Shown here: positions 558 through 28,252 of the stretch, one piece after another
Layout: every line of letters starts with the position of its first letter
Position numbering within the stretch: the stretch's first letter is position 1
DNA from: a virus
Strand: one strand, 5' to 3'
Length of the DNA stretch: 64,000 nucleotides
IMG/VR virus record: IMGVR_UViG_3300045988_174111
Span: 1 to 64,000 of that record
Translations under genes and position numbers: made by a program
The notes under the pieces: generated by a model
What the model was told of the DNA's origin: nothing
Databases searched by the model: none
Seen by the model: the letters and a program-made list of their open reading frames with translations, nothing else

Positions 558-567
558 TTTTTCCCGT

Positions 568-575
568 TATATTTG
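568..575 (+). promoter_or_regulatory. Bacteroidota-type -7 box TATATTTG upstream of rep-like gene
   Basis: Exact TAnnTTTG match 25 nt upstream of the ATG at 600. No clean -33 TTTG. Confidence 0.4.
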
Positions 576-599
576 TGTGGAAATTAAACATTATACGAT

Positions 600-1412: not shown

Positions 1413-1947
1413 TATGGGCAAAGAAGAAACTTTAACCGTACTAAATCTTCAAGCAGAAAATGACCGTTTGACAAAACGAATATTTTTCCTTGAAAGAGAA
1501 AACCGAGAACTTAATAAGGAAATATCAGAATTTTCTGAAAGAGAAAAACAGCTTCTTCAAGAAATTAATTCATTAGAATTTGAACTTGAAGAAGCAAATA
1601 AGGGTAAACTTCCAAAAATTTCTTCACAGCCTTCAAAAACTGTTGAAGATTTTCTCTCCCCTAAAGTTAACACAGGAACTGGTCTTGACAGGTCTGGAAA
1701 AGGTTTAGAAGAGGAATGGGAAGACTTTATGTATGCTTATACAGATGAAATTTTCATTGATTCAGATAAGCCAGATGTCATCCTTTATAAGGATGAATCA
1801 GATAAATGCTACACAACTCCAACAGGTGGAACAAGACTTCCCTTCCCTATTTTAAAAGAAGACCTTGAGAGATATAATATACTGAAAGTTCGACCGCTTA
1901 CAGAGGAGGAATTGACCGAGGTATGTAAAGAATACAATTTGCTATGA
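1402..1947 (+). CDS. Hypothetical protein, N-terminal coiled coil
   Basis: ORF overlaps the rep stop by 11 nt. Heptad-like E/L/N-rich N-terminus (LQAENDRLTKRIFFLERENRELNKEISEFSEREKQLLQEINSLEFELEE). Confidence 0.6.
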   Translation: MLSNMGKEETLTVLNLQAENDRLTKRIFFLERENRELNKEISEFSEREKQLLQEINSLEFELEEANKGKLPKISSQPSKTVEDFLSPKVNTGTGLDRSGKGLEEEWEDFMYAYTDEIFIDSDKPDVILYKDESDKCYTTPTGGTRLPFPILKEDLERYNILKVRPLTEEELTEVCKEYNLL

Positions 1948-2378
1948 ACAAAAAAATTTTAGAAATCTTAGAAAAGGATTTTGAAGAACTGAACAAATCA
2001 GAGCTTCAAATTCTTAGGAATGAAACTAGAAAAATCCAAGGTATTCAGGGGCGAATCGAAAATGATTCATTACTTGATTCTTACCTGAATTTAAAGAGAA
2101 AGCATGTTACGAACCTGGAACAGGTTTTAGTGTCTCCTAAATTATCTGAAGTTGACTTTGGGCCATTTTTAGGCAAACAAACTGTTTTAAATAAAGTTGT
2201 TGTTCCTACATTTGAGTCGGTAAATAAGCCATTTAAGCGAAAATTTTACATTGATGGATATATTTATTTACCTGTATTGACTGTATCGTATTTAGAGGAT
2301 AAAACTGAAGTCATTTGTTTGTCACCCGAAGGGGAGTTTTGTAAAATAAATAATAAGGAACTCAATTTTGAAATATGA
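1944..2378 (+). CDS. Hypothetical protein
   Basis: ATGA start/stop overlap with the upstream ORF. Last gene of the short plus-strand operon. Confidence 0.55.
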   Translation: MNKKILEILEKDFEELNKSELQILRNETRKIQGIQGRIENDSLLDSYLNLKRKHVTNLEQVLVSPKLSEVDFGPFLGKQTVLNKVVVPTFESVNKPFKRKFYIDGYIYLPVLTVSYLEDKTEVICLSPEGEFCKINNKELNFEI

Positions 2379-2380
2379 AA

Positions 2381-2406
2381 AATGGCGGAGTAAATACCCC
2401 GCCATT
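2381..2406. terminator. Hairpin at convergence of plus and minus transcription units
   Basis: AATGGCGG (2381-2388) pairs with CCGCCATT (2399-2406), 10-nt loop. Lies 3 nt after the stop of 1944..2378. Confidence 0.55.
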
Positions 2407-2452
2407 CCCGTCAAACAACAAATCAAAGCATGAAAAACAAAATGTCCAAGGG

Positions 2453-2728
2453 TCACTTCCCTCTGACGACAGTAATATAACGGTCATACATGGCTTCCCA
2501 GTTCTTTTCGATGTATTTGCATTTCTGAGAAAAGGATTTTTCAAGTAGAATTCCAAGATTTTGAAATACTCCACTTTTAATGACAGGGTCTTTCATTTTT
2601 AGAAAAATTCCTTCATCGGTTACGAAACCTATTTCTTCACCCTTGTATAGAAGCTGGGCATAATCAGGAGTTGGCATTCCCGCACCTCCTTTTATCTTTG
2701 TTTTAACTATTTCTATTGGAGCTATCAT
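2453..2728 (-). CDS. Hypothetical protein
   Basis: 91-aa ORF. Its ATG overlaps (ATGA) the stop of the upstream open frame. Confidence 0.6.
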   Translation of the reverse strand: MIAPIEIVKTKIKGGAGMPTPDYAQLLYKGEEIGFVTDEGIFLKMKDPVIKSGVFQNLGILLEKSFSQKCKYIEKNWEAMYDRYITVVRGK

Positions 2729-3013
2729 AGTTTACCCTCCTTTTCTTTAAGTTTTAATCTAAATGGATGCATTTCCCACAGTATTTGAGCGTGTTCTTTT
2801 ACCCAATTAACCGCATATCTGTGGTCTTTCGGGTCTTTTATTCTCAAAAGAACGTTATTAGGAACACAGTATAGAAGTATCTCGGACGCACCGTAAACCG
2901 AAGCAATAGACTCTCCTTTAAAATAAATGGTTGAGGAAACCTGTTCCCCAGAAGCTCTTTGTAGCTTACTGAGCTTATTGTTTTTTCTTAGATGTAAATT
3001 TTATCTTATTCAT
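2725..3013 (-). pseudogene. Hypothetical ~95-aa gene interrupted by a 1-nt insertion in an A6 run (T6 on plus strand, 2981-2986)
   Basis: The ATG at 3013 gives MNKIKFTSKKKQ then a stop. An ATG-less frame stays open for ~85 codons down to a TGA overlapping the next ATG. Removing one A from the run joins the two frames. Confidence 0.6.
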
Positions 3014-3025
3014 AATTTCTTCGAA

Positions 3026-3331
3026 TTAATAGTTAGCTACTTTTTGTCTTGTATTGGCGATGAAATGTTTATTAGAGCCTTTCAACTTTATTTCGCCTAA
3101 ATTTTCCCAATCACCGTTTGACCAGAACTTAGTAATGCATGAGCCTACATATTTGTCAAGATTAGCCTTAATAAGTTTCTTTTCAGGAGCTATTGAGCTA
3201 AAAGTAAAGGTGTCTTTTGTTTCTGATAATTCGACCTCCTTCCATACATATTTACCATTTTCAAGAACTCGTCTTTCGTCAAAAACTGTATAGGTAACTG
3301 ACTCGCTGAAATAAACTGTAACTGTTTTCAT
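3026..3331 (-). CDS. Hypothetical protein
   Basis: 101-aa ORF 27 nt downstream of a consensus promoter. Confidence 0.65.
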   Translation of the reverse strand: MKTVTVYFSESVTYTVFDERRVLENGKYVWKEVELSETKDTFTFSSIAPEKKLIKANLDKYVGSCITKFWSNGDWENLGEIKLKGSNKHFIANTRQKVANY

Positions 3332-3357
3332 AACTTTCTTTCTTTTGATTGACGGTA

Positions 3358-3388
3358 CAAAGGTAGTGCATTGAAATGAATATCCAAA
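3358..3388 (-). promoter_or_regulatory. Bacteroidota sigma-A type promoter (TTTG-N19-TACCTTTG)
   Basis: Minus strand: -33 TTTG at 3385-3388, -7 TACCTTTG at 3358-3365, spacer exactly 19 nt. Confidence 0.7.
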
Positions 3389-3392
3389 GAAA

Positions 3393-3413
3393 AACCCCGA
3401 AAATTTCGGGGTT
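3393..3413 (-). terminator. Intrinsic terminator after 3435..4085
   Basis: AACCCCG/CGGGGTT stem with an A/T loop, followed on the minus strand by a T-run. Confidence 0.65.
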
Positions 3414-3434
3414 ATAAATATTTGATAAAATTTC

Positions 3435-4085
3435 TTAAGAAGAAACAGTGACAGTAATTTGATATTCTATCAATTTCGTTCCATCAGATTTTTTTAAAAT
3501 TAGATGCAAAATATCCCCATTTTTCATATTATTGAATCTTATAACATTATGGAGATAATCCCCATTATATTTGAATTGAGGAGCTTGATAAAAAAAGGCA
3601 TATCCATTATTTTCAGAATCAATATTATGATAATATTGAGTTTCATGAGCTTCAGAATTTCTCCAAAATTCAAGCTGAGGCCCATCTCCAACCACAAATT
3701 CTTTTTTAATTAATAAAATTGGGTTTACCCCCATGTTTATGTCTTTTTCACTGTCAAAATATCTTAGTTCGGCCATCATATTAATCGTTGGAGCTCCATT
3801 TAAAATAGAAAAGGAAGCTTGATTATCGGCTACAGTATTTCTTGAATTTAAGAATACGGCAGCACCGTAAAGAGTATTTTTGAGGTTACCCCAAACATTT
3901 ATACCCAATTCAAATAAAAATGGAACGCCTGTTTCCATTGCTTCTACCGAACGGGTGATTCCACCTCCGGACACGTTTAATGTCGTTTGTTTATCCTGAA
4001 AAGCAGTATTCACTGCTGCTGTCGTTGTTACAGTTCCACCACCAGTTCCTGAATCTGGTGTGGCAGTAATGAAATCTTTTTGCAT
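3435..4085 (-). CDS. Hypothetical protein, Gly/Thr-rich N-terminus
   Basis: 216-aa ORF with its own promoter and terminator. N-terminus PDSGTGGGTVTTTAAVN. No recognisable catalytic motif. Confidence 0.65.
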   Translation of the reverse strand: MQKDFITATPDSGTGGGTVTTTAAVNTAFQDKQTTLNVSGGGITRSVEAMETGVPFLFELGINVWGNLKNTLYGAAVFLNSRNTVADNQASFSILNGAPTINMMAELRYFDSEKDINMGVNPILLIKKEFVVGDGPQLEFWRNSEAHETQYYHNIDSENNGYAFFYQAPQFKYNGDYLHNVIRFNNMKNGDILHLILKKSDGTKLIEYQITVTVSS

Positions 4086-4116
4086 AATTCTTAAAATTTA
4101 ATATTAAACTTTTGAG

Positions 4117-4148
4117 CAAAAATATAAAAAGTGAGCGTTTTTTACAAA
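4117..4148 (-). promoter_or_regulatory. Bacteroidota-type promoter (TTTG-N20-TATTTTTG)
   Basis: -7 TATTTTTG at 4117-4124, -33 TTTG at 4145-4148, 32 nt upstream of the ATG at 4085. Confidence 0.55.
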
Positions 4149-4170
4149 TTAGATAAAACGCTCACTTTTT
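4126..4170 (-). terminator. Long hairpin terminator after 4176..5129
   Basis: AAAAAGTGAGCGTTTT (4126-4141) is the exact reverse complement of AAAACGCTCACTTTTT (4155-4170). GC core of 7 bp. Confidence 0.6.
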
Positions 4171-4175
4171 ATATT

Positions 4176-5129
4176 TTACAAAAGAACAGCCCAATTCTCT
4201 AAGAAGCCTTCGAGTTCGTGAACGGAAACGAGGCTGTAATAATTGATTTTCTTAGAAAGCTTTTCATGGATATAGGAGAGTGATTCAAGTGAGCTTCTAA
4301 ATCCAAAAATTGGCTTAGGAATTAAACATGACGCATCGATTGCCATACCGTTATGTTCGTACGAATAATTTACCAAGAAATATGTAGACCACGAATATTT
4401 CTTCATAATTAGATTATATTCTGGGTCTGGACATTTTGCGTCTGAATACAGGGTTTCCCCACTAAGGGGTGATATTGGTTGATAATGAACGATTGAGATG
4501 TCATAATCGCCAATTACAAATTGTGAACATAAAGATTTGAGATATTCAATTGGTTCCTTTTCAGAGGGAACATGAAATTCCTTCCTGTATAAGAAAGGCC
4601 GAATCTTAGTATCCTTTGGCTTGATTAAACAGGTAACTACACAGAAACCAGTCTTGAGTTCATTCGTGATTTTAGTCTGTGAAATCTGATATCCAGGGAT
4701 AGGGCAATCCGTAAATTCTCTGGTGTCTTCTTCACTGTCGGGGTTATTGATTTCCCCAATTGCACTGTAAATTTTCCCACCACTGACAAGTGCTGGAATC
4801 CAAGCTGTTCTGTTTTCGTTTTCATCGCTTATTCTAGCCCAAATCATTTTTTCCGGTTCAGGTTTTTTATTCTCAGGATATTTGTGAGGGCAATTTCTAC
4901 AGCCCTTGCCACAGGTTTCAGACGTTTCTTCGAAACAGAAATCAGGAAATTTCGAAGATTGAGATACCGCATGTAGAGGATGACCTGTAACCCCCATTAT
5001 GGTGAGGTGTGCTTTGAACAAATCAAACATTTTGTTTGCATCGATACTCATTGAAGCATCAACTTCTTGATAAAAACTTCTCACGACGTCATTTTCGTCA
5101 GAAAAAATAAATTTGTAAGTTACTTTCAT
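4176..5129 (-). CDS. Hypothetical protein with Cys cluster
   Basis: 317-aa ORF containing CFEETSETCGKGCRNCPHK, a possible metal site. Confidence 0.65.
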   Translation of the reverse strand: MKVTYKFIFSDENDVVRSFYQEVDASMSIDANKMFDLFKAHLTIMGVTGHPLHAVSQSSKFPDFCFEETSETCGKGCRNCPHKYPENKKPEPEKMIWARISDENENRTAWIPALVSGGKIYSAIGEINNPDSEEDTREFTDCPIPGYQISQTKITNELKTGFCVVTCLIKPKDTKIRPFLYRKEFHVPSEKEPIEYLKSLCSQFVIGDYDISIVHYQPISPLSGETLYSDAKCPDPEYNLIMKKYSWSTYFLVNYSYEHNGMAIDASCLIPKPIFGFRSSLESLSYIHEKLSKKINYYSLVSVHELEGFLENWAVLL

Positions 5130-5151
5130 AATTTTGTTATTTAAAGATTAA

Positions 5152-5508
5152 TTATTCAACGTCACTTTCGTAAGTTATTTGGTATATTTCCCCATCAATA
5201 TATTTATACGCTAAAGTTTCATTTTCTATCTGAATAATTTGACATTCTACAGAATTAAATGAAATTATTCGGATTGTCTTTTCGAACTTTTCAATATACA
5301 AAGTTGATTTATTATTTCCTGTTCCACTCCAATAAAGGTCAGCAGAATATTTACTTCCCATTTTGAATTGAAAGAAATGAAACCAAGACACAATATTCCA
5401 AAACAAATTAATTTGTCCAGAATCTTTGAAAAAGAAATATTGTTCCTTAAATATGATTCTATACCATAATTTCAGAAACCACGATAAATGGAACTTTTTA
5501 ATTAGCAT
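5152..5508 (-). CDS. Hypothetical protein
   Basis: ORF track gives 5152..5559. The start at Met18 (MLIKKF, ATG 5506-5508) limits the overlap with the upstream gene to 7 nt. Confidence 0.5.
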   Translation of the reverse strand: MLIKKFHLSWFLKLWYRIIFKEQYFFFKDSGQINLFWNIVSWFHFFQFKMGSKYSADLYWSGTGNNKSTLYIEKFEKTIRIISFNSVECQIIQIENETLAYKYIDGEIYQITYESDVE

Positions 5509-6104
5509 GACTTTGCTTTTTGATTTAATTCTGCGCGAATATTTTCTATCGTGTCGCATAAATTACTACTGTTTTTATTATTTTTCTCGTTCAGCTTACA
5601 ATAAACTTCATAAGCTTCCGGAAATTCATTTTTGAGTTTCTTTGGAGTGAAAGTTGTATTCTCCATGAGGCACGATAATCTACCCTTTATAGAAGCCTTT
5701 TCTGTTTCTAACTTTAGAAATTCTTCAATTTTAGAAACAGTATCTGCGTTTGAAATTGAAGCTACCCACTTAGAAACTTCATCGCTCCCTCCTTTATAAA
5801 ATTTCGTAGGGAAGGGAATTTTTCTTGAAAATTTCAAATAACACGAAATAGAAGAAATGACCTTCCCGTTTGGGAAAAATTGTTTTGGAAAATAATAAGA
5901 AGACAAGTACAGCGAATCCCCTGAATAGAAATAGTCGGGGTGGGCTTCAAAAGTCTTCAGGACATCTTCAGAAGTTTCGTCAAGTAATTGTTTTTCAACA
6001 AGTGAACTCAATTCGCTGACTACTTTTTCAATCTTTTTGCCGAATTGAACTTTTATAAGTTCATTCACAATTTCCTTTTTCTTTGTAATAGTTATTACTG
6101 CCAT
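5502..6104 (-). CDS. Hypothetical protein
   Basis: 200-aa ORF in the tandem minus-strand array. Confidence 0.6.
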   Translation of the reverse strand: MAVITITKKKEIVNELIKVQFGKKIEKVVSELSSLVEKQLLDETSEDVLKTFEAHPDYFYSGDSLYLSSYYFPKQFFPNGKVISSISCYLKFSRKIPFPTKFYKGGSDEVSKWVASISNADTVSKIEEFLKLETEKASIKGRLSCLMENTTFTPKKLKNEFPEAYEVYCKLNEKNNKNSSNLCDTIENIRAELNQKAKSC

Positions 6105-6119
6105 AATTTTTATTTTAGA

Positions 6120-6857
6120 TTATTTACTGTTTACACCATACCCAAATAAAGCAAAATCACATTTACAGGGGTCTAATGGGAAGACCTCCCGACATTTAGT
6201 TGTAAGGCTGAGAACTGTATCCATATTATCACCTTTGTCCGTTATGAGACCCAATTGACGGCCAATGTTGGAAACATGAGTATCAAGTGGAATTAGAAGC
6301 TGGGAGGTTGGAACGAAACTCCATATTCCTAAATCAACTGGGCTGTTTTTTCTTACCATCCAACGTAAAAACATATTTAGACGTTTACAGGCGGATTTTG
6401 AATCCTGGGGAATACCTTTCACTCCAGGGAACAATTTTATTAAAGCATCGAGATAATCTGTTCCTCCTACTGTTCGAATATAATTCTTTGACAGGGCTTC
6501 TTCCATATCTTCATTTTCATCATAAATTGTTTTAAGAGCCTTACATAGTTCGGCGAAGTCCTTCCATTTAAAGAAACGGTACATGGTTTCTTCAGAATCA
6601 ATGTATTTTCGCCAAATCATATTCTTGATATACATGTAAGGCGTATAAAACTCCATTTCAGAAAATAATTTTTCACATGTTGAAAGAATTGCCTTTCTGT
6701 TACCGTATGCAAGCCAAGCTGAAATGAACCCAACTATTTCTTGGGAACATTTGTATGAAAAGCGTCTTGGAAATTGAACAGGGTCGTCATTCACGAATTC
6801 TGACTTTTCATACTGTTCAGCAAGCTTTACTAATTGATTTTTCAATTTAATATCCAT
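6120..6857 (-). CDS. TIGR02757 / DUF2400 family protein
   Basis: Family-typical motifs: ISAWLAYGNRK, KRLNMFLRWMVRK, PLDTHV, CDFALFGYGV. Confidence 0.75.
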   Translation of the reverse strand: MDIKLKNQLVKLAEQYEKSEFVNDDPVQFPRRFSYKCSQEIVGFISAWLAYGNRKAILSTCEKLFSEMEFYTPYMYIKNMIWRKYIDSEETMYRFFKWKDFAELCKALKTIYDENEDMEEALSKNYIRTVGGTDYLDALIKLFPGVKGIPQDSKSACKRLNMFLRWMVRKNSPVDLGIWSFVPTSQLLIPLDTHVSNIGRQLGLITDKGDNMDTVLSLTTKCREVFPLDPCKCDFALFGYGVNSK

Positions 6858-6862
6858 CTGAT

Positions 6863-7303
6863 TTATTTTAAAATTTCCTTGATTCTTTCTTTTTTAATTA
6901 AACGTTTCATCAACTCTCCATCGGCAGAAAAAAGCGAAGATATTCGAAGAAGTTCTTCGTAAGTGGATACAGGCTTGTCTGTGTAAAGTTTTGTTTCCGT
7001 TATCCATTGAGGCTTCATAATCCAAACATCTCCTGTTCCTTCCTTTTCTACAATAGTGAGAACGGAATCATTCTTGATTTTATTGAAATTTTTAAATTGA
7101 GCAAGACGAAATGTGAATTTTATCCCATTACTGCCTATCAAGTAATTGCTTCGGGGATTTTCAATTTTTGAAATATTAATCAATTTTCCTTTAAACCAAC
7201 GATTGACAAAATCGATATGTAGGAAAATATTCAAGATTTGTGGCTTGTAAATGATACAAGCTGTTCCGTCTTCCCAAGGAAGTTGTGGTTTTTCCGTTTT
7301 CAT
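6863..7303 (-). CDS. Hypothetical protein
   Basis: Track ORF starts at 7354, but that extension covers the promoter -7 box. Start taken at MKTEKPQ (ATG 7301-7303). Confidence 0.6.
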   Translation of the reverse strand: MKTEKPQLPWEDGTACIIYKPQILNIFLHIDFVNRWFKGKLINISKIENPRSNYLIGSNGIKFTFRLAQFKNFNKIKNDSVLTIVEKEGTGDVWIMKPQWITETKLYTDKPVSTYEELLRISSLFSADGELMKRLIKKERIKEILK

Positions 7304-14057: not shown

Positions 14058-14170
14058 TGAACCATCCGGAATTTTCTTGAAGATTTCTTCGATTGACCGA
14101 TTTTTAGTCGGTATAACCCATCCTGAAACCGTTTCCGCACCTTTCTTTAGGAACCTGTTCCATTTTCCCC
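14037..14170 (-). other. Out-of-frame (-1) continuation of the J-domain gene
   Basis: After ..IKAAG the -1 frame reads GKWNRFLKKGAETVSGWVIPTKNRSIEEIFKKIPDGSLLSHSE. This recreates a [LI]K..GG.WN...W.IP module also seen at the SNF2 N-terminus (VKKFAGAGWNPQNKEWYIP). The shift lies in GGGGAAAA (plus strand TTTTCCCC, 14163-14170). Confidence 0.55.
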
Positions 14171-14950
14171 TGCAGCCTTAATTGAGTCCTTTATGGGCTT
14201 TGTATCACCAAACACTGCATAGCTCTTTTCGCTGTATTGAATTATTTCGATGTCAGCTTCCTTGACAGGTTCAGATACAGTCGTTGACGGGGTAGAGGGT
14301 TCAGACTTAATTCGAGCCGTCTTGTGGATTTCCTGCCAGCCCTCTTCTCCGGCTACTTCTTCGAAGAGATAGAAGTTAACGTCGAAATAATCTGTCATTG
14401 CATCGCTGTCGTCGTAGTTATAGCTCATACAGTATTCGACAACGTCCTTCATTACAACTTCCGCCTCAGGAACGATTCTATTGTCAGTGTCATGATATCT
14501 GTATGAAGTTTGAACCCCGTACTTTCTTGAGCATTCATCTGTCTTTGAGATTCCAGCCGAAATCGGGCCACCCTTTAACTCAATACGAATCTCCGCACAC
14601 ATGGAAGCGAAGTGACAGCGAACTGAAAACTTCCATTGATTCCACTGTTCCTTACAGTATTCGCGAACGAGTCGGGCGATGTCCTTAGTATCCAGCTTTC
14701 CGTCGTATCTTGAACCTTCCCAACCGTATTGAGTGTAGAAGCGACGGCGAGATTCTGCCCCTGTCTTGTCAGCCGGACGCATTTCCTCAGGAAGTCTGTT
14801 CACCCATATCTTATACAGTTCATCGTACTCAGTGTTGATTTCTTTCATCACCTGTTCTGAGCCGCCTCTGTCGGGGTGATTGGCAATTGCTAAAGTTCTA
14901 TACTGGCTTTTCAAAGAAGCAAATGAATCAATGTTATTGAAGTATTTCAT
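14147..14950 (-). CDS. J-domain (DnaJ-like) protein, as encoded; C-terminus probably truncated by a frameshift
   Basis: J-domain signature LKSQYRTLAIANHPDRGGSEQVMKEINTEYDELYKIW with HPD. Start taken at MKYFNN (ATG 14948-14950), because the track extension to 15127 overlaps the upstream gene. Confidence 0.8.
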   Translation of the reverse strand: MKYFNNIDSFASLKSQYRTLAIANHPDRGGSEQVMKEINTEYDELYKIWVNRLPEEMRPADKTGAESRRRFYTQYGWEGSRYDGKLDTKDIARLVREYCKEQWNQWKFSVRCHFASMCAEIRIELKGGPISAGISKTDECSRKYGVQTSYRYHDTDNRIVPEAEVVMKDVVEYCMSYNYDDSDAMTDYFDVNFYLFEEVAGEEGWQEIHKTARIKSEPSTPSTTVSEPVKEADIEIIQYSEKSYAVFGDTKPIKDSIKAAGENGTGS

Positions 14951-14960
14951 GGCTATAAAT

Positions 14961-15182
14961 TTAGAAGTTATTGAATGCGCTTTGTTTGATTTCTTGATAA
15001 CAGTATTTTCTGGCTTCGTTGTATTTCTTGTCATCCTCGCTGTCAAGATTGTCATACGCCTGAGAATTATGAGAAAGAACTTTGACTTCGTTACCTTTGT
15101 AACAGGCTTCGATAATATAGTTTCCATACCCTTCGGTTTTCTTCATTACAAATTCAACTTTTCTAAATGAACCTCTTTTCAT
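14961..15182 (-). CDS. Hypothetical protein
   Basis: Track start 15224 lies in the promoter -7 box. Start taken at MKRGSFRK (ATG 15180-15182). Confidence 0.5.
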   Translation of the reverse strand: MKRGSFRKVEFVMKKTEGYGNYIIEACYKGNEVKVLSHNSQAYDNLDSEDDKKYNEARKYCYQEIKQSAFNNF

Positions 15183-15223
15183 GACTGTATAATTTAATTT
15201 GTTTGACTTTTTATTTAACACCA

Positions 15224-15231
15224 CAAAGGTA
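15224..15231 (-). promoter_or_regulatory. -7 box TACCTTTG (no clear -33)
   Basis: Exact TAnnTTTG in the same CACAAAGGTA context as the other promoters. Confidence 0.45.
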
Positions 15232-15257
15232 ATGCGATTATTTGAAATAAAAAAGAA

Positions 15258-15279
15258 ATCCCGGAAATATTTCCGGGAT
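15258..15279 (-). terminator. Hairpin terminator ATCCCGGA-N6-TCCGGGAT
   Basis: Same stem as 13173-13194. Lies 6 nt after the stop of 15285..15977. Confidence 0.6.
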
Positions 15280-15284
15280 ATTCA

Positions 15285-15977
15285 TTATTTTTTGGCCCAT
15301 TTTTCAAAAAGCTGATAATAACTACTACGAATAAACAGCATATCACCGCTTCCGTCTCCCCACCAATCGTGACGCTGAGTAATATATTGGCCAATTCCGT
15401 TGTTGGGGCAAAGCTTGTTATATATAGCATTGAACATTCCTGAAATTTTTTTACCTGAGAAATGCCCAGCCTTCTTAGCATCGTTTGTGCAATAGCCATA
15501 AGAATAATCTTCAACAACCTTACCATCCTCATCAAGAAAGTTCTCTTCAGTATCTCCCCAAAACCCTTCTTTAATTGTGTCTTTTAGAAGTTGTTTCTGT
15601 TCATCAGACAGGTCTTTAAGAATTTCTTCAACAGTAGGAAATTCATTTACCTTGTTTTCAGGCGTGATATTTGTCAGGTTACCATTCTTGTCCAGGAACT
15701 CAACCTTAATCTTTTCAGGCTCGCTTTTCCCCTTTTCCCATAACAGCTCGTCTTCACCACTACCACCGAAGAATGTAACCTTTGTCATCTCTTTACGTCT
15801 TTCCTTCAGTTCTTTAACCATTTCAGCACCCTTTTCATTAATAAATCTTTCATCTATCACCATGTAGTCCTCTTCTTCGTTACCGTTAAAAACTACAAAG
15901 TAATAAGCATTATCACATACCCAATTATGACGGATAGCTTTCTTTAACTCACTAAATATTTGACTCTTTGTTTTCAT
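15285..15977 (-). CDS. Hypothetical protein
   Basis: 230-aa ORF with its own promoter and terminator. Confidence 0.65.
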   Translation of the reverse strand: MKTKSQIFSELKKAIRHNWVCDNAYYFVVFNGNEEEDYMVIDERFINEKGAEMVKELKERRKEMTKVTFFGGSGEDELLWEKGKSEPEKIKVEFLDKNGNLTNITPENKVNEFPTVEEILKDLSDEQKQLLKDTIKEGFWGDTEENFLDEDGKVVEDYSYGYCTNDAKKAGHFSGKKISGMFNAIYNKLCPNNGIGQYITQRHDWWGDGSGDMLFIRSSYYQLFEKWAKK

Positions 15978-16008
15978 GGCTTATATTGTTTTATTGTTTT
16001 TGATAGAA

Positions 16009-16039
16009 CAAAGGTAGTGGATTCTGATGAATCATCAAA
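16009..16039 (-). promoter_or_regulatory. Bacteroidota-type promoter (TTTG-N19-TACCTTTG)
   Basis: -7 at 16009-16016, -33 at 16036-16039. Confidence 0.7.
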
Positions 16040-16982
16040 GAAATTATTCAACTTTCTTCAGATTTTTCTCAAGATTTTCGATTTACTCCTGTTCCATACC
16101 TATCCACAAAGTTAGGAGCTGAAGTTACAATCTGTAAGTTTGAACGTTCAAACAGGTTTCAATTTATTACGAACTTTTTCATATTTCATTTCAATCTGTT
16201 GCTGCTACTCCGGAGCATAGTTTCAAACTATAAGTCAGGAACGTTTCCATGACACGTCATCACCCGTCATCACACACGTAACATCATCACCCCACAGCAA
16301 GTTACACACGAAAACACACCCCATGACACACCTTGTTATTCCTGCACCGAATTTCCCGGAGTAGATGCAACCAAACGTCCGTGTCTTGGTGGAGAGGTTT
16401 TAGTGGCTGTTTTTAGTCGTTTACAGCGTCAGAACCGCCAGTCTCGTGATAACGGATAGTGAGGCATGTGAAATCGTCGCAAATGACAACCCTCGACGTC
16501 CTGGAGCTGAGGTAGGGAGAGTCATCGAGCACACGGGTGACGGGTTGAGTCGCGCAGGATTCCTGGCGCAGGAAGTGTTGCAGTCCGGATTCTAAAATAC
16601 CTCCACACATCATCACCCACTCCAACCCACCATTGTAACCCACACCCCAACCAACCCCCCACACTCCGTATATCACCACCCCTGTACCCATACCCCCTGA
16701 CCACGTACATGTACCTCTACATTATGTATTTCTAACCCATCAGTGATTATCACCCCTACTTTTATTTTTGACAGGTATAAATGAATCACTGAATTCGATA
16801 CATCTCATACCATACTCTATTAGGAGCTAACCATACTGGGGTACAGAATAATACCATGACTTTGGTAGACGTCCCTGTTCGAGACGTCTAGAGGGGTGTA
16901 ACAGGCCATCATCGTGACTCATCACACCCCTCAGCAGATTTACTAAGAAACAAAACCAAAATATCGAACCCCAAATCTAATT
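16040..16982. other. ORF-poor, compositionally aberrant island (candidate structured ncRNA or cis-acting site)
   Basis: No convincing ORF over ~940 nt. Two C/A-rich, nearly G-free plus-strand tracts (16248-16332, 16596-16705) flank a GC-rich core. Five exact CATCAC plus variants. 16-bp perfect palindrome at 16138-16153. Inverted repeat 16205-16213 / 16356-16364. Confidence 0.5.
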
Positions 16983-17192
16983 TTATCGAGTAAAGCTTCC
17001 TATCCCGCCAGTTCCGGACGCTCCTTCGTACTCACGTTTCAACGCTATAAGCGTAGCATCATTATGCCTTAATGTTTCAAGAATTTCTTTAGCATTTTCA
17101 TACTTCTCCTCCTTGAGGGCTTGCTGATACAATTTTCGAAGCTCTATCTGATACATTGACAGCACAGGCAATTGAACCTCAGTCAGCTTCAA
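16983..17192 (-). CDS. Hypothetical protein
   Basis: 69-aa helical ORF. Confidence 0.5.
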   Translation of the reverse strand: MKLTEVQLPVLSMYQIELRKLYQQALKEEKYENAKEILETLRHNDATLIALKREYEGASGTGGIGSFTR

Positions 17193-17194
17193 TG

Positions 17195-17521
17195 CTATGA
17201 TAAAATTTTATTGGCCAAACTGTCCGCTGCCCTTTTCAACGCTACGTAGAGCCATATCATACCTACTATGACGACAAGCGATAAGACGCCAAGCGCAATC
17301 AATAAATAAAACATTCCTTCCATAATAGCTTTATTTTGTTCAACAACCATTAAATTGAATTCTGTCTCTATTTCTGACAGGTACACCGTTGTTCCGTCGA
17401 CATTTACGGCCAACTCATTATTTTCATCCTCATCAGCAAACACTTCAATAATTTCGCCCGTGTTTATGTTACGTACCATGTCCCCAGCCTTAATTTCTTT
17501 TCCGTATAAATCTTTAAACAT
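17195..17521 (-). CDS. Hypothetical protein with C-terminal transmembrane helix
   Basis: GMFYLLIALGVLSLVVIVGMIWLYVAL is a hydrophobic segment. Confidence 0.55.
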   Translation of the reverse strand: MFKDLYGKEIKAGDMVRNINTGEIIEVFADEDENNELAVNVDGTTVYLSEIETEFNLMVVEQNKAIMEGMFYLLIALGVLSLVVIVGMIWLYVALKRAADSLANKILS

Positions 17522-18292: not shown

Positions 18293-18904
18293 TTATTTAA
18301 TATTTATATCCTTATAAGCGTTTAATTCTACCAATTCAAGCAAATCCTTTTTAGCCTTATGTAAGGCGTTTTTCACCTGTTGAATTGTGAGATTCATCTC
18401 GTCAGCAATTTCCTCGTAGCTAAACCCCTCAAAGAACCGCATTTGTATGACCCTTCGATACAGGAAAGGTATCTTTTTCAAGAGCCTCTTTACAAATTCT
18501 ATTCTTTGAGTATATGACAGCTCCTCCTCTGGGGTACGGCTGTCATCCATTATTTGTAACGTTGGGCGGTCGTTTTCAGAGTCATCAAAGCTATCGTCAA
18601 TACTCACGATATTTGTTCTCGATTGTCTTCTACAATAATCTATTGCACAGTTTCTGCCTATTCTTACCAGCCATGCACTGAGTTTATAATCTGGCTGAAA
18701 ATTCTTTAGCCTTTCAAAAGCCTTTTCAAAGGTTTCCATGACAATGTCTGAAGCCTGTTCACTGTCAGTGACGATTTCAGATATCTGAACAGTTAGGATG
18801 ACATTATATTTCTTGAATATCATAGAAAACGCTGATTGGTCGCCACACAATGCTCTTTGAACCAATCCGAAATCCTTTTCTCTGTGAGTAATTTTCTTGT
18901 CCAT
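18293..18904 (-). CDS. Sigma-70 family (ECF-type) RNA polymerase sigma factor
   Basis: Region 2: DIVMETFEKAFERLKNFQPDYKLSAWLVRIGRNCAIDYCRRQ. Region 4: YRRVIQMRFFEGFSYEEIADEMNLTIQQVKNALHKAKKDL. Confidence 0.85.
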   Translation of the reverse strand: MDKKITHREKDFGLVQRALCGDQSAFSMIFKKYNVILTVQISEIVTDSEQASDIVMETFEKAFERLKNFQPDYKLSAWLVRIGRNCAIDYCRRQSRTNIVSIDDSFDDSENDRPTLQIMDDSRTPEEELSYTQRIEFVKRLLKKIPFLYRRVIQMRFFEGFSYEEIADEMNLTIQQVKNALHKAKKDLLELVELNAYKDINIK

Positions 18905-23240: not shown

Positions 23241-24851
23241 TTATTTTTTAGTTTGTTCATCACTCGCAGACATAGCACATGAAGTGTTTAAGAATTGAAT
23301 TGCAACAGAAACTGAATTTTCGAGAGCAACCCTTGATACTTTTGCAGGGTCAATGATTCCGGCCTCCAACATATCTTCTACTACCCCACTTTCGAAATTA
23401 AAGCCAAAGCCAAATTGAAGTTTTTCAAGGTCGACTTCAAGCCTTGTTGCGTTGACACAGGCATTTTCGCAAAGCTGTCTGAACGGTGCCAATAGAGCCT
23501 CAACAACGATATTCCAGCCATTAATAAAATCATTGCTTTTACCCTCATTTTCTTTGCACTCTCGTAAAACTTTAGCTGCTCGGAATTGAATAGTTCCACC
23601 TCCTGGAACGTACCCTTCCTCAAGAGCTGCTCTCGTAGCTGCAACAGCATCATCAACACGGTCTTTTCGCTCCTTCATTTCTACTTCGCTGTCCGCTCCT
23701 ACATATATAACTGCAGCACCACCAGTCAGCTTCGAAATTCTTTCGCGATATTTTTCAACATCATACGGATTCGAATTCTCCTCAATTAAATGTTTAATTG
23801 ACTCAACCCTCACATTTATATCCGCATCGGTTCCAACGCCACCTACGAGAATCGTACGATTTGTTGAAACCACTGAACGTTCGCATTCGCCAAGCCAATC
23901 AGTTCCAAGATGTTCGACAGACCGCCCATATTCATCACCAACAACTTTTGCGCCTACTTTAACGGCCAAGTCTTCTATCATGTCTTTTTGAATCTGACCG
24001 TATCCCGGAGCCTTAACGAAACATGCTTTCAGGCCATTCTGCTGTTGAACGTTTGTAACTAAGAATTTGATAACGTCATTTGACGCATTAGGAGCCACAA
24101 TCAAAATGCTCCGTTTCGCCGAATAAACTGTTTGAATAATCGGGAAAATTTCTTGGGGGTAATTGATATTTTGGCCAAAAATAAGAATGTATGGCTTATC
24201 AAGAACAGATTCCATTCGTTCGGGGTCTGTTACAAAGTAGGGATTCACAAGCCCCTTTTCCCACTGAAACCCTGTGGTAACTTCTACGGTCGTTTCGTTT
24301 CCCTTGCTACTTTCTTCAACAGTAATGACACCGTCATTTCCAACCTTCCCAATAGCTTCCGAGATAATACAACCAATCTCGTCGTCCCCGTTTGCGCTTA
24401 TTGTGGCAATTTGGCGTATTCTTTCAAATTCGTTCTTATCAATTTCCGTTGAAACAGAACGAATAAAGTCGGCAGCATAATCTTTTGCGGCCTCAATACC
24501 TTCCTTAAAGAGCTGTGGATTCTTAACATTTGGAAGAACCCCCATTCCTTCCTTAATTAGAGCACGAGTCAAAATCGTTGCAGTCGTTGTACCATCACCA
24601 GCCTCATCACAAGTTTTAGCAGCAACAGTTTTGACAAGGGTTGCCCCCATACGTTTCATCGAATTGTCTGTGTCATAAGCACGAGCAACAGTTACACCGT
24701 CTTTCGTGATATGAGGTATCCCAAATCCACGGTCAATAATAACTGAATGACCCTTTGGCCCAAGCGTAGAAGCCACTGCGTCTGTCAATTCATCAATGCC
24801 TTGGAATAAAGCCATCTGAGCTTTTTCCTTGAAAAAAATTTGTACGTTCAT
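23241..24851 (-). CDS. groEL: GroEL-like (Cpn60) chaperonin
   Basis: LGPKGHSVIIDRGFG, AGDGTTTATILTRALIKEG, PGGGT. Start taken at MNVQIFFKEKAQ (ATG 24849-24851), because the track extension overlaps the terminator hairpin. Confidence 0.9.
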   Translation of the reverse strand: MNVQIFFKEKAQMALFQGIDELTDAVASTLGPKGHSVIIDRGFGIPHITKDGVTVARAYDTDNSMKRMGATLVKTVAAKTCDEAGDGTTTATILTRALIKEGMGVLPNVKNPQLFKEGIEAAKDYAADFIRSVSTEIDKNEFERIRQIATISANGDDEIGCIISEAIGKVGNDGVITVEESSKGNETTVEVTTGFQWEKGLVNPYFVTDPERMESVLDKPYILIFGQNINYPQEIFPIIQTVYSAKRSILIVAPNASNDVIKFLVTNVQQQNGLKACFVKAPGYGQIQKDMIEDLAVKVGAKVVGDEYGRSVEHLGTDWLGECERSVVSTNRTILVGGVGTDADINVRVESIKHLIEENSNPYDVEKYRERISKLTGGAAVIYVGADSEVEMKERKDRVDDAVAATRAALEEGYVPGGGTIQFRAAKVLRECKENEGKSNDFINGWNIVVEALLAPFRQLCENACVNATRLEVDLEKLQFGFGFNFESGVVEDMLEAGIIDPAKVSRVALENSVSVAIQFLNTSCAMSASDEQTKK

Positions 24852-24885
24852 CTTGTTTTCGTTTTTTAAATTGTTTTTATTAAAA

Positions 24886-24920
24886 CGCCCGAAAACCATA
24901 TCTGTTCTAATTTTCGGGCG
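24886..24920 (-). terminator. Hairpin terminator after the RNR gene
   Basis: CGCCCGAAAA (24886-24895) pairs with TTTTCGGGCG (24911-24920). A T-run follows on the minus strand. Confidence 0.6.
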
Positions 24921-24931
24921 AATTTTTATAA

Positions 24932-27900
24932 TTAATTTCCATTCGGATTTTTAGGAGACCACGTGCAACTTCCTCCTGCACAGGCCGTAGCAATTTCACT
25001 TCCAGCCTCCTTCAGTTTAGGCTCTTCCCATACGATATTGTCGTAGGATACGGGTTTCATTCGGCATATTGCCTGCCACTTGTGGAACGCATTCACATGC
25101 TTCAGACAGTATGAAGTCTTTTGCTTGTCCCCGTTCATATATTTATCCGCAAATGAATTGAATCGACGTATCCAGTCTTTTCTTGTCTCGGCACGTCTTT
25201 TCAGAAAATCAATTACACAATTGACATCGGAGAAGCAAACCCCGTCAATATCTACCAAGAAATGCCCGTCTTTAATGTTTTCAACAACGAATTCGGCTAT
25301 CTGCTTGTCAGATATATCTAAGAGCTGTGGAGCTAAACCCATAGCCGCGTTGCAAGCTTCCCACACATCTTTAAATACATCGTTTGCATCCACTATCAAA
25401 CCGCTCGAAAGAATAGCTCCAGCACCATACCGTTGAGCAAGCTCAGTTTCATCCAAAACCTCTGTGTATGGAGCCTGTGGATAATCTAAGTCGCCAAAAG
25501 AAGACAGCAAGCTGATTCCCCCAAACTGGCTTCGATGATTCCAAAGGAACTCTCTTACATCGTCCCATTCATCTGGCTTTACCGTGCAAGTATTTGACAC
25601 ATTCATTCTCAGAGTAGGGTTTTCCTTTGTAGAGGGGTGGTCAGGATTTGTTCCATATTCTATCCAGTTCTGTTTTGTCAACAAAACATAATTCAAGAAT
25701 TCAATTGCAGAAAGGTCTTTTCTTAATAAAGCCCCCTTCGGAAGTGTAACAGGGAAAGCAATTACTTTTTCTCGGTCTGGTGCCCATGCGCTTTTTTCTA
25801 CCATGTCAGGATTTACTTTTTCCCATTCCTGAATGGCCTGTTCAGTGTCAGCGGCTTGAATGTGGCGAATATAATGACGAGAGTGGCCTGGAGTTATCCC
25901 GGACAAAGTTCCTAAAAGTTGAGAACTGTTTCCTGAGGGCTTGACAACCGTACATCGAGCAGCCTCATTGATACCTATCATTCTGGCAACCTTCTTATTC
26001 GTTTCTACGACAATTTTTGCGCCACGTTTTTGAACATCGGGATTGAATAAGATATCAGGATTCTCGCAAAGCCCCGTGATTCCAACCCCTATCAAAGCGT
26101 CTCTTTCGGCTATCATCTTAGACCACTTTTCAAGAACTTTAAAATCTGTGTAGCCAGCCTGCAAGGTACAGATAACAGAAGCAGCTTCGCACACATCGTA
26201 GAAGTCTTGCTCGCTCTGAACTTTTCCCCCGTTGATTTCCGCTAAATTACAGAATCCCCATCCTGAATGCGTAACTCCATCTTCGTCTTTAATTTGAGGG
26301 AACATTCCCACCTCGCCACAATTATGAACTAAAACTCCAGTACAATTTTCATAATTTTCATCACCTTTTGTAATGATATAAAAATTATGATTATCTTCCA
26401 CAGTTAAATCATAAACAGGCTCTACACCACAAGCGACAACAGATTCAACCCTAACAGAAATTTCTATTGATTCCTTCTCAGGCTTGATATATTCCCTTTC
26501 GTCAACTTCTTCAATATAAGGTTGTCCAGAAAGAACTAAATTTCTTAAGTTTTCAATCTTTCCACCAAACCTATTCTTGGACAAATTTTTAGGAAAACGA
26601 CTGTCTAATTTATTGCAATTTGCACAAGAAATATATCCACCGTTCTCATGAACTTTCTTGGCAATTTCATATAACTCTTTATTTGTTAACCCCTTGTATC
26701 TTCCGTTCTTTTCAAGAGTTGTAGAAATTGACATATTATGAGAATATGCTTTCACATCTTTTCTTCTAAACATCGGGTTATTTTCACCTAATCTTTCAGA
26801 AGCTGATTTTTCTTGATGTTCCCCCCTTTCAAGCAAATGTAAGTTTTCAATAAAATCTCCTTTGCCATTTTCAATGTGGTCAATATCAAAAGGAACATCC
26901 CCATTAAAATATTCCCAAATCATTCGGTATTGACGCGCATACCCATTACTTCGAGAACAAATTGTCCGATATTTTTCTTTTATCGTAAAGAAAGGTTGAA
27001 GTTCTTTCCCAACACACTTACATGCTTCCAAATAAGTTCCATCTTTCAAAGCAAGTTTATGATTTGGGGTGCACTTAAATTTCGTTCCGTCCGAAAGTGT
27101 TACTTCAACAACTTCCTTATCACCTGTTTTAAATGCTATTGCCTTTTTAATTTCAGGTTTCCATCTTTTCGAATTGCGTCCAGCTTTGTCAACCCACTTT
27201 CCAGAATACACGGGAAATTCTTTTACATTTTCCGCCAATTCTTTTATAGAAACGGCATTCCTTCCATCAGCAACCGCCACAAGAGTTTCCCCCGTAAAAC
27301 AAGGATTATATACAAAGTCTGTCTTATCAATGAACACGAATCCAGGCTCCCCATACAATTTCGTGAATTCAAATATTGAATCAAATGTTTCCTTTGGGGT
27401 ATCCGGAAGAATAGCAGCGGAATTATTACTTCGGCAAAGTTCTGGCATCGTTGAAATCCAATTTCCTGTTTTACAGGAAGCCATTTCAGCATCATCAGCA
27501 TCAAAAATACTTATCATTGCTGAACGTCGAACTCCCCCTGTCACAACGCTATTTGCACAGACACAAATCAGATAATGCAATTCAAATGGACGTAATTTAC
27601 GGCCTTTAATTTTTGTTAGAATACTGTGAAGCTTTTCTATCGCCAATTTCAAAGGTTCCGGTCCAGGAGCCTTGAATCCCCCACGAATATACGCGCCTTT
27701 GGGGCGAATTTCTGAATAGTCAAATTCAATGTCGGCACCACCATAATAATACGCTGTCATCAGCTTCCCAACGGCCTTTGCCCAGCCTTCAATCGTATCA
27801 GGAATCACAAATTTTTCTGGCTGTTGAACATTGCTGAAGCCTTTAGGAATCGGGAGTTTGTCGGTGTGAACCCTCTGAACACTGTACCCAGTACCAGCCC

Positions 27901-28252
27901 CACAAAGAAGGAGATACATAATTTCCTCGAATACCTGAACTCTATCTATGTAAGTTGATGAACAATTATAGAATCTCGCATGCTTTTCTAACATTAATTC
28001 ACCACCGTACTGAAGTGCGCGTTGGGCTCCCAAAATTCGCTTGTCCAGATAGAAATTATATGCTTTTGTAAACAATGCTGAAAATTCAGGCTCATCCTCA
28101 GGTTTTATTTGCCCAGCATACCTTTTGAAGTGCATATCCATAACTCTGGCAACGGCATCCTCCCACTTCTCTTTCTCCCCATTGTGAGTTTGTGAATACT
28201 TACTCAAAAAGATATATTCACCAACAACTTTTCGACTGTCTTTTTCAATCAT
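24932..28252 (-). CDS. nrdJ: Ribonucleotide reductase catalytic subunit, probably class II (NrdJ-like), intein-containing
   Basis: After intein removal the extein carries the thiyl-radical loop YNP-CGEVGMF (NPCGE). Also GGVRRSA and a C-terminal Cys pair ACAGGSC. No ATP-cone and no NrdB nearby. Confidence 0.8.
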   Translation of the reverse strand: MIEKDSRKVVGEYIFLSKYSQTHNGEKEKWEDAVARVMDMHFKRYAGQIKPEDEPEFSALFTKAYNFYLDKRILGAQRALQYGGELMLEKHARFYNCSSTYIDRVQVFEEIMYLLLCGAGTGYSVQRVHTDKLPIPKGFSNVQQPEKFVIPDTIEGWAKAVGKLMTAYYYGGADIEFDYSEIRPKGAYIRGGFKAPGPEPLKLAIEKLHSILTKIKGRKLRPFELHYLICVCANSVVTGGVRRSAMISIFDADDAEMASCKTGNWISTMPELCRSNNSAAILPDTPKETFDSIFEFTKLYGEPGFVFIDKTDFVYNPCFTGETLVAVADGRNAVSIKELAENVKEFPVYSGKWVDKAGRNSKRWKPEIKKAIAFKTGDKEVVEVTLSDGTKFKCTPNHKLALKDGTYLEACKCVGKELQPFFTIKEKYRTICSRSNGYARQYRMIWEYFNGDVPFDIDHIENGKGDFIENLHLLERGEHQEKSASERLGENNPMFRRKDVKAYSHNMSISTTLEKNGRYKGLTNKELYEIAKKVHENGGYISCANCNKLDSRFPKNLSKNRFGGKIENLRNLVLSGQPYIEEVDEREYIKPEKESIEISVRVESVVACGVEPVYDLTVEDNHNFYIITKGDENYENCTGVLVHNCGEVGMFPQIKDEDGVTHSGWGFCNLAEINGGKVQSEQDFYDVCEAASVICTLQAGYTDFKVLEKWSKMIAERDALIGVGITGLCENPDILFNPDVQKRGAKIVVETNKKVARMIGINEAARCTVVKPSGNSSQLLGTLSGITPGHSRHYIRHIQAADTEQAIQEWEKVNPDMVEKSAWAPDREKVIAFPVTLPKGALLRKDLSAIEFLNYVLLTKQNWIEYGTNPDHPSTKENPTLRMNVSNTCTVKPDEWDDVREFLWNHRSQFGGISLLSSFGDLDYPQAPYTEVLDETELAQRYGAGAILSSGLIVDANDVFKDVWEACNAAMGLAPQLLDISDKQIAEFVVENIKDGHFLVDIDGVCFSDVNCVIDFLKRRAETRKDWIRRFNSFADKYMNGDKQKTSYCLKHVNAFHKWQAICRMKPVSYDNIVWEEPKLKEAGSEIATACAGGSCTWSPKNPNGN
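26321..27301 (-). mobile_element. Intein (327 aa) with HNH endonuclease domain, in the RNR NPCGE active-site loop
   Basis: Begins CFTGETLVAVADG, has block B TPNH, ends VLVHN followed by +1 Cys. HNH motif DIDHIENGKGDFIENLHLLERGEH. Confidence 0.9.

Follow-up and report, generated by a model that had tools for sequence, protein, structure and literature searches.

A conserved non-coding element at an operon boundary

The DNA analysed here, termed the window, comprises 64,000 nucleotides (nt) of a phage genome (positions 1 to 64,000 of IMG/VR record IMGVR_UViG_3300045988_174111) in which nearly all genes lie on the minus strand. A previous inspection of the letters alone, referred to below as the sequence-only reading, had drawn attention to an island poor in open reading frames (ORFs) at 16040-16982, and no ORF of at least 100 amino acids (aa) is listed inside it. 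Within this island, ~620 nt (~16316-16935) form a conserved and non-coding element that lies at an operon boundary and is specific to a lineage of uncultured Bacteroidales phages from the human gut. The element is real and undescribed, and only part of its mechanism is inferable from sequence.

The island was correctly placed downstream of the stop of a minus-strand gene (16983). This gene (16983-17192, minus strand, 69 aa) closes a series of small genes that follow the sigma-factor gene (18293-18904), the first of the operon. Its stop codon (16983-16985) adjoins the element, and a CTCGATA(A/G) motif at its end is kept in all homologues. On the opposite side a promoter of the Bacteroidetes sigma-A type, TTTG-N19-TACCTTTG, was located by pattern match at 16009-16039. 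A promoter had been proposed at this position; it lies on the minus strand and drives the gene at 15977-15285. The promoter sits in an 80-nt block (15999-16078) that is 84-90% identical across relatives, for example at 7927-8004 of contig L013; this block is more conserved than the adjacent genes, and weaker copies of it are present elsewhere in related genomes (e.g. L001 3488-3567). With a stop codon at 16983 and the promoter of the next unit at 16039-16009, the island therefore lies between two transcription units, the element starting at the stop codon of the last gene of the sigma operon and ending next to the promoter of the following one.

Relatives were collected by exact-motif scans of IMG/VR and metagenome contigs, which returned many human-gut contigs, several of them 107-114 kb in length, and by an nhmmer profile search, which returned 55 full-length copies (53 distinct) plus partial copies. 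The sequence-only reading had made its proposals depend on conservation in relatives, and the element is kept in more than 60 related contigs. The isolate-phage collection yielded one partial match only, the scan of the genome collection gave no nhmmer-confirmed homologue (the matches look like chance), and a search for relatives with the 230-aa protein encoded downstream returned nothing. The window copy is the most divergent of the full-length set, with ~70-74% identity. The flanking genes are only 72-83% identical, whereas blocks of up to 26 nt in the element are invariant; the earlier suggestion that the island is a decayed GC-rich insertion is contradicted by this pattern and by the number of contigs that retain it. 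The copies are built of mosaic haplotype blocks, and the identities of the left and right parts are weakly correlated (r = 0.28).

A protein-coding gene was sought in the element and rejected. Column variability showed no 3-periodicity across the element, the synonymous share of single-base codon differences was 0.16-0.40 across the six frames, and indels were often 1, 11 or 22 nt, which are not multiples of 3. Stop-free stretches occur on both strands because of the base composition; they shift frame between genomes and are cut short, in part by 1-nt indels, in subsets of genomes. The highest synonymous fraction (0.40) belongs to a GTG-initiated plus-strand frame of 49 aa (16446-16595, VITDSEACEIV…VLQSGF), which reads similarly in many relatives and is truncated by a 1-nt deletion in genomes of the L001, L013, L014, L017 and L051 types; this frame was judged non-coding on tests that were not exhaustive.

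Known RNA families were also absent. The sequence-only reading had suggested an Rfam scan, and this, run on the window and its homologues, assigned no family: Rfam 15 gave no match at the gathering threshold across the whole window, only chance snoRNA-like matches (E 0.075 or higher) in 15800-17200 with E allowed up to 10, and no match in six homologous loci with E up to 1. ARAGORN detected no tRNA or tmRNA in the window, and no intron model or riboswitch was matched.

Hairpins, hypervariable tract and C-rich zone

The right-hand third of the element forms hairpins when read on the minus strand. A small 4-base-pair (bp) hairpin of the UCGA-UAU-UCGA type (16956-16966; helix 1, with two compensatory pairs) lies in the spacer after the stop codon and is followed by hairpin P1 (16890-16933), which has 18-19 bp, a 7-nt loop and four invariant G·U pairs. 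P2 (16867-16889) directly abuts P1; its 9 bp (GGACGUCUC / GGGACGUCC), one of them U·G, close a 5-nt loop. The stem-loop previously noted at 16868-16890 is present, and its '7-bp' stem is part of P2. All cells of P2 (100%) are paired, and its closing pair shows a compensatory change from G-C to A-U. Helix P3 (helix 4, 16740-16792, formed by 16785-16792 with 16740-16747) is 99.7% paired. Four of its pairs vary, on one side only, its 3' arm falls within a GGUGAUAAUCAC motif, and the two pairs that are U·G and G·U in 47-48 other sequences are C-G and A-U in the window.

Over 49 distinct sequences these helices comprised 99.6% standard pairs on the minus strand, compared with 31-52% in controls slid by 1-3 columns. 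Change on both sides of a pair was found in four pairs, a number reached by none of 500 shuffles. Approximately 20% of the paired cells are G·U, which become A·C mismatches when read on the plus strand; they include four invariant G·U pairs in P1, one in P2 and two in P3, and one-sided changes at G·U positions go to G-C or A-U. Because of its four invariant G·U pairs, P1 is complete only on the minus strand. Column-shuffle folding of the alignment gave a strong structure signal across 16720-16951 that was stronger on the minus strand (for 16833-16951, z -9.35 minus versus -5.1 plus), and the energy of P1 with P2 was -44 kcal/mol (z -7.4) on the minus strand versus -27 kcal/mol (z -4.2) on the plus. 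Alifold of the whole element was not discriminating on either strand, and mutual information with average product correction was dominated by the mosaic haplotype blocks and was of no use for helices. From the hairpin data it is concluded that the right-hand third would be read as a single-stranded nucleic acid of minus polarity, most simply RNA co-directional with the flanking genes. An intrinsic (Rho-independent) terminator was rejected: no terminator-like site, taken as a GC-rich hairpin directly before a U run, was found in 15800-17300, and P2 is followed by ACCAAAGUCAUGG.

In the sense direction there follows a hypervariable tract (16596-16712), rich in G and U with hardly any C on the minus strand and rich in C and A on the plus strand. 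It measures 100-150 nt, with a sense composition of 42-45% G, ~30% U and 4-8% C. The scarcity of G on the plus strand, reported for two tracts, was borne out in both: 5 of the 110 nt of 16596-16705 are G (57 are C and 32 A), as are 8 of the 85 nt of 16248-16332, and the 100-nt window poorest in G of all 64 kb (3 G) starts at 16589-16593. The boundaries of the hypervariable tract are conserved (…UAUAUAG…UAUAUGG on the 5' side and GGGUAUUU(A/C)GA on the 3' side). Its length changes by gain or loss of G-rich modules of 11-22 nt with composition and boundary motifs fixed. Mean pairwise identity within the tract is 0.58, against 0.85-0.88 in the flanks, and in genome pairs with a flank identity of 97.5% or more it can drop to 0.52-0.79. 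Jointly, the tract and the C-rich zone that follows it fold at -70 to -90 kcal/mol. Random tracts of matched composition do equally well (mean z -0.57), so any G/U-rich sequence would pair with the C-rich zone, which fits selection on composition alone. The middle of the element is thus constrained in composition only.

The G-quadruplex potential ascribed to the G-rich strand is not a conserved feature. The strict motif (G3+ N1-7 G3+ N1-7 G3+ N1-7 G3+) occurs in one of 50 distinct homologous tracts, 23 of the 50 have a motif with loops of up to 12 nt, and the window copy has long loops only. GAGG, which resembles a Shine-Dalgarno sequence, is enriched ~2.4-fold over dinucleotide shuffles in two lineages and is not enriched in the window copy. 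Many contigs end inside the element; the tract breaks assemblies and could serve as a strain marker. The element is found at varied places in the 107-114-kb contigs, and contigs broken inside it break at different points. A packaging site or genome terminus was therefore rejected, there being no constant position at contig ends and no adjacent terminase (the large subunit gene, TerL, is 43 kb off).

The tract is succeeded by a C-rich, G-poor and unstructured zone of ~280 nt (16316-16595, minus sense), where the element's invariant blocks are longest, with as many as 26 nt unchanged across all 53 sequences: TTTCCCGGAGTAGATGCAAC (16352-16371), TCCGTGTCTTGGTGGAGAGG (16378-16397), TCTCGTGATAACGGATAGTGAGGCAT (16442-16467) and AGTGTTGCAGTCCGGATTC (16574-16592). 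No complementary or identical partner of these blocks exists elsewhere in the 64-kb window (7 shared 11-mers versus ~19 expected). In the window, each 78 nt of the zone's sense strand holds 20-29 C, 15-18 G and at most 19 YC dimers, and segments of the zone fold like shuffles (z -1.3 to +1.1). The core that the sequence-only reading took to be GC-rich and to carry local hairpins is indeed GC-rich (island GC 0.48-0.58, against ~0.38 for the window), but its structure is no better than that of shuffled sequence: column shuffles of 16297-16608 gave z about 0, up to +1.96, on either strand, and averaged pair probabilities for the core also indicated no structure. Its proposal of a structured non-coding RNA consequently stands for the right-hand third, with its minus-strand hairpins, and fails for the core. 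A Rho utilization (rut) site was taken as a stretch of at least ~80 nt that lacks structure, has more C than G and abounds in YC dimers, and the left zone agrees in composition with such a site in five lineages (23-29 C, 12-18 G and 14-19 YC per 78 nt).

In the window the element is extended on its left by a lineage-specific insert of ~240 nt (16078-16315), giving a 'long version' that is restricted to four genomes (the window, L051, L085 and L089) and absent from most relatives. Several features of the sequence-only reading are located here. The insert holds the perfect 16-bp palindrome GTTTGAACGTTCAAAC (16138-16153), the first C/A tract, a further palindrome ATAGTTTCAAACTAT (16217-16231) and the left arm CTACTCCGG (16205-16213), which is complementary, as was reported, to CCGGAGTAG (16356-16364) and extends to 16-nt arms that are 88% complementary. 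The repeated 11-mer CATCATCACCC and 9-mer TCATCACAC were reproduced, as were the five CATCAC copies (16258, 16268, 16285, 16611 and 16920; 0.56 expected from window density). Three of the five fall in the insert, and the copies are not conserved as an array. Palindromes are modestly enriched in the window element (6 versus 1.8 in shuffles), and their density is average in L013, the one relative tested.

The first C/A tract is accounted for by a duplication, since 16197-16313 of the insert is an inverted, diverged copy of the element's own left end. In the window, L051, L085 and L089 this inverted copy retains two modules, M1 (GCTGTGGGGTGAyNATGTTA) and M2 (TTCCCGGAGTAG; TTCCCGGAGT), together with CCGGAGTAG. 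The same two modules are kept in a strongly diverged tandem copy in L050 (1-430), the sequence between them being unalignable. Other tandem copies of the left 180-260 nt, in L078 (12662-13257), L093 (11015-11322), L031 (1-294) and L044 (12945-13351), show little or no divergence and are placed at contig ends; the L078 duplication is joined at the short repeat AACAGTCAT. Inverted copies of CCGGA-N-TGCAAC are present in the first and last invariant blocks (16355-16371 and 16577-16589), at both ends of the left part, and in L123 AATTTCCCGG and GCATCTAC occur in flipped relative order and orientation. Of the protein-binding site put forward by the sequence-only reading, the short modules kept in inverted and tandem copies of the left part remain as support, and the signs of an array, origin or terminus do not.

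More distant relatives were fetched via the sigma factor (~40% identical sigma proteins). In L127-L130 the profile match (E = 2e-17) spans the tract and runs into the beginning of the C-rich zone, and L122-L126, L131 and L134 show a weak profile match to the tract only. Two of these sub-lineages were read, L127 and L123, and both contain a gene-free island of 470-780 nt in the corresponding position, behind the sigma gene and a few small genes that follow it. They share a GGUGAUA(A/G)U motif, a sense-strand tract with at most one C per 100 nt and the boundary motif GGGU(G)UAUUUAGA, followed by a C-rich stretch. Per 78 nt of sense strand, 1-6 C and 32-43 G are followed by 23-29 C and 12-18 G, with 14-19 YC dimers in the C-rich half, in the window, L013, L006, L127 and L123. 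This dipole, G-rich and then C-rich on the sense strand, is the most deeply conserved property of the element.

The phage genome around the element

The window encodes a PolIII-alpha-like polymerase (46816-51282, 1488 aa), a DnaB-like helicase, a NAD-dependent ligase, a ribonucleotide reductase (24932-28252), ThyX and an SbcC-like protein, in addition to TerL, the phage's own sigma factor and a full-length GroEL-type chaperonin (23241-24899; PHROG E = 1.6e-144). The island lies downstream of the replication-gene module. The best relatives of TerL are in the Bacteroides thetaiotaomicron phages DAC19, DAC20, DAC22 and SJC03 (36% identity). The promoter pattern TTTG-N19-20-TAnnTTTG matched 14 times on the minus strand, within 3358-53772, and once on the plus strand of the window; examples are at 3388-3358, 9991-9961, 12017-11987, 13169-13139, 16039-16009, 19585-19555, 20040-20010 and 37073-37043, and an extended CCACTAyNTTTG -7 region is common to many of the 14. 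These Bacteroidetes-type matches point to a Bacteroidota host and define the transcription units of the phage.

The ten ORFs neighbouring the island gave no informative family matches and contain no reverse-transcriptase domain. A retron or diversity-generating retroelement was rejected on this basis and because the tract variants are indels, not A-specific substitutions. Just past the island promoter, the genes at 14147-15977 encode a 326-aa protein with LPD29 and a weak DnaJ match and the 230-aa protein of unassigned function. They are absent from L001-type relatives, which have another gene after the promoter block; the element thus borders on a variable accessory region. In L001 itself (IMGVR_UViG_3300045988_076153, 1-6866) the first 3433 bases are the reverse complement of the next 3433; this perfect palindrome at the contig start, which gives the element a second, inverted copy, most probably arose as an artefact of assembly.

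The proposal that the island is an origin or genome terminus was not sustained, there being no GC-skew switch, no nearby terminase gene and no constant distance from contig ends. A replication origin by standard criteria was rejected because there is no skew switch, the island is GC-rich and relatives do not keep the CATCAC copies as an array. Near 2-3.4 kb of the window the sign of both GC skew and gene orientation reverses: genes at 600-2378 are on the plus strand, only short ORFs occupy 2375-3435 and all genes beyond 3435 are on the minus strand. If the genome has a skew-defined origin or terminus, window positions 1-3435 are a more likely place for it than the island.

Candidate functions and known systems

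The core of the island (~16316-16935) is tentatively interpreted as a non-coding operon-boundary module that would work mainly as minus-strand RNA and control termination or insulation, probably via Rho. No promoter of its own was found for the element, and, as an intrinsic terminator was not found either, read-through transcription from the sigma operon is most likely. Such read-through would yield a minus-strand RNA with P1, P2 and P3, then the G/U tract and then the C-rich zone. The C-rich zone, its composition and lack of structure being as expected of a rut site, may load Rho, which would stop sigma-operon transcription ahead of the next promoter. The G/U tract, pairing promiscuously with the C-rich zone, could mask it, and the invariant blocks, perhaps as protein-recognition sites, might together with the tract make termination conditional. 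P1 and P2 would define or protect the RNA end, or act on RNA polymerase. In favour of such a module, the promoter of the next unit is of the same type as 13 others on the minus strand.

Several observations weigh against this interpretation. Covariation is thin, as 22 of the 39 hairpin pairs never vary, and the folding energy of the whole element is unexceptional on both strands (z -0.74 and -0.94). The 20-26-nt invariant blocks exceed the needs of a plain rut site, and short spacers suffice at other operon boundaries in the window. In addition, modules persist in inverted or flipped copies (GCTGTGGGGTGA…, CCGGAGTAG, CCGGA-N-TGCAAC and AATTTCCCGG/GCATCTAC), a behaviour that recognition of double-stranded DNA fits better than RNA and that is the main reason for limited confidence in a purely RNA-level model.

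This persistence is the core of the argument for a protein-binding region of double-stranded DNA, which might regulate the adjacent promoter from upstream, provide recombination or inversion sites or serve as a platform for a replication initiator, with the hairpins of the right part as a separate feature of the 3' untranslated region. The survival of M1 and M2 in diverged inverted and tandem copies amid unalignable sequence, the inverted CCGGA-N-TGCAAC copies and the flipped half-motifs of L123 all agree with such a region, as do the lack of RNA structure in the zone, its distance of 15-65 nt from the -33 box in the short version and the modest excess of palindromes. The palindrome density of L013, however, is average, the island is GC-rich when origins and operator arrays are usually AT-rich, and perfect invariance over 26 nt goes beyond typical binding-site needs; no adjacent recombinase or initiator gene was identified, and all four long-version genomes have the same orientation, with no inversion seen. 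A DNA-level role is on balance unlikely, as is a stable trans-acting phage RNA of ~0.6-0.9 kb, which would be released from the operon transcript on the minus strand. In such an RNA P1 and P2 would shield the 5' end and the unstructured invariant blocks would bind or pair, so that it might act on a protein or RNA of host or phage as a sponge or decoy. A GC-rich island in an AT-rich genome, minus-strand hairpins, long invariant single-stranded blocks and recurrence of a GGUGAU motif on the sense strand would suit this RNA, and the tandem left modules of several genomes would raise its dosage. Complementary targets are nevertheless absent from the 64-kb window, no Rfam family was found even with E up to 10, and conservation of modules in inverted orientation does not suit a single-stranded RNA function.

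The composition of the tract also invites comparison with an R-loop at a lytic replication origin or primer site, where G-rich RNA would stay hybridised to the C-rich template and prime or open the DNA. The extreme excess of G over C on the non-template strand for 100-150 nt, kept in composition and not in sequence in all sub-lineages, the position downstream of the replication-gene module and the local instability (hypervariable tract, duplications and many contig breaks inside the element) are in keeping with this. Hypervariability explains the contig breaks equally, however, and GC skew stays negative throughout 2-64 kb and does not switch at 16.5 kb; there is no AT-rich unwinding element, the single DnaA-box-like 9-mer is located in the lineage-specific insert and the strict G-quadruplex motif is not conserved, which together make an R-loop origin distinctly improbable. 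Two further explanations have very little to recommend them. One is a solitary mimic of a CRISPR repeat, acting as an RNA anti-CRISPR. The block at 16335-16371 (comparison sequence GTTGCATCTACTCCGGGAAATTCGGTACAGAAGTAAC) resembles direct repeats beginning GTTGCATCTAC (ending GTAGATGCAAC on the other strand), and on the plus strand it is a 37-nt imperfect hairpin with a 12-nt arm, a 3-bp stem, an A/U-rich loop (AAUUUCC) and a 12-nt arm, starting GUUA and ending CAAC. Direct repeats of type VI-B measure 36 nt, with 5'-GUUG and CAAC-3' ends and a U-rich loop (bioRxiv 10.1101/092577), so these hallmarks are only partly present (GUUA not GUUG; 37 not 36 nt). A CRISPR array in IMG/VR contig L209 (IMGVR_UViG_3300017987_000527, 2561-5010; spacers ~30 nt) has a repeat, GTTGCATCTACCCCTCAAAATGAGGCCGCTTACACC, that shares the 11-nt end and forms a stem-loop at an equal offset. 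Nine of those 11 identical bases were imposed by the search pattern itself, though, and the array stands in unrelated, GC-rich surroundings beside a TnpB-like or type V protein of 533 aa. The block is single copy, has neither spacers nor a cas gene and accounts for only 37 of ~620 nt. A type VI-B array with cas13b was rejected, as there is no repeat family of that period and the neighbouring genes gave no such matches. The other is a decayed gene, or a recombination linker that is passive and itself without function; in its favour one could cite the mosaic haplotype blocks with their weak left-right correlation (r = 0.28), the stop-free stretches in several frames and the slightly raised synonymous fraction (0.40) of one plus-strand frame. 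It is hard to reconcile with invariant blocks that persist amid 25-30% divergence, an architecture kept in sub-lineages with an only 40% identical sigma factor and the conservation of G·U-specific hairpins.

A more ambitious reading, in our estimation a long shot, would be a new class of phage regulatory RNA in which a C-free G/U tract, selected for composition alone, is an all-purpose mask of the invariant, unstructured C-rich zone, creating either a switchable super-rut for capture or release of host Rho (a Rho decoy or conditional terminator) or an R-loop primer for a lytic origin. Gut Bacteroidales phages are abundant and their gene regulation is almost unknown. The element is among the best-conserved stretches near the sigma operon of a 108-kb phage lineage present in many human gut metagenomes, and its architecture, with hairpins, then a hypervariable tract conserved in composition and then invariant unstructured sequence, is unusual. 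If it controls termination, it would give a first point of access to how these phages time their transcription and make use of Rho; should it be an R-loop origin or a decoy RNA, the mechanism would be new.

With respect to known systems, the element is a phage non-coding control element or non-coding RNA that matches no described RNA family. With CRISPR direct repeats and RNA anti-CRISPRs it has in common one 37-nt imperfect hairpin, the end of which matches a real repeat; it differs in being single copy, with no spacers and no cas gene, and in showing the defining ends only in part. As in the R-loop primers (ColE1 RNA II, T4 oriF/oriG and mitochondrial CSB II), a transcript rich in G would lie on a template rich in C, downstream of folded RNA, but the element has no skew switch or unwinding element. 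GOLLD and ROOL are likewise GC-rich, several hundred nt long, phage-borne and of no assigned function; they possess extensive covarying structure, whereas about one-third of the element is structured and it has no Rfam match.

A further comparison is with the put RNAs of phage HK022, cis-acting antiterminators composed of two adjacent stem-loops. Compared by architecture alone, P1 and P2 are likewise two directly abutting stem-loops in a predicted nascent transcript, but P1, at 18-19 bp, is far longer than the put stems, and there is no Rfam match. The nearest functional analogy is nutR-tR1 of phage lambda, where a boxA/boxB hairpin is followed by rutA and rutB and a Rho-dependent terminator. 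There is no sequence similarity between the two. The element is 3-4 times longer, is adjoined by a separate promoter for the next unit and has a Rho or antiterminator role that is only predicted, and its hypervariable C-free G/U tract and 20-26-nt invariant blocks have no counterpart in lambda. As in nutR-tR1, however, the element is non-coding, stands at the end of an early unit and passes from hairpins into an unstructured, C-rich and G-poor stretch, an arrangement that would allow conditional read-through.

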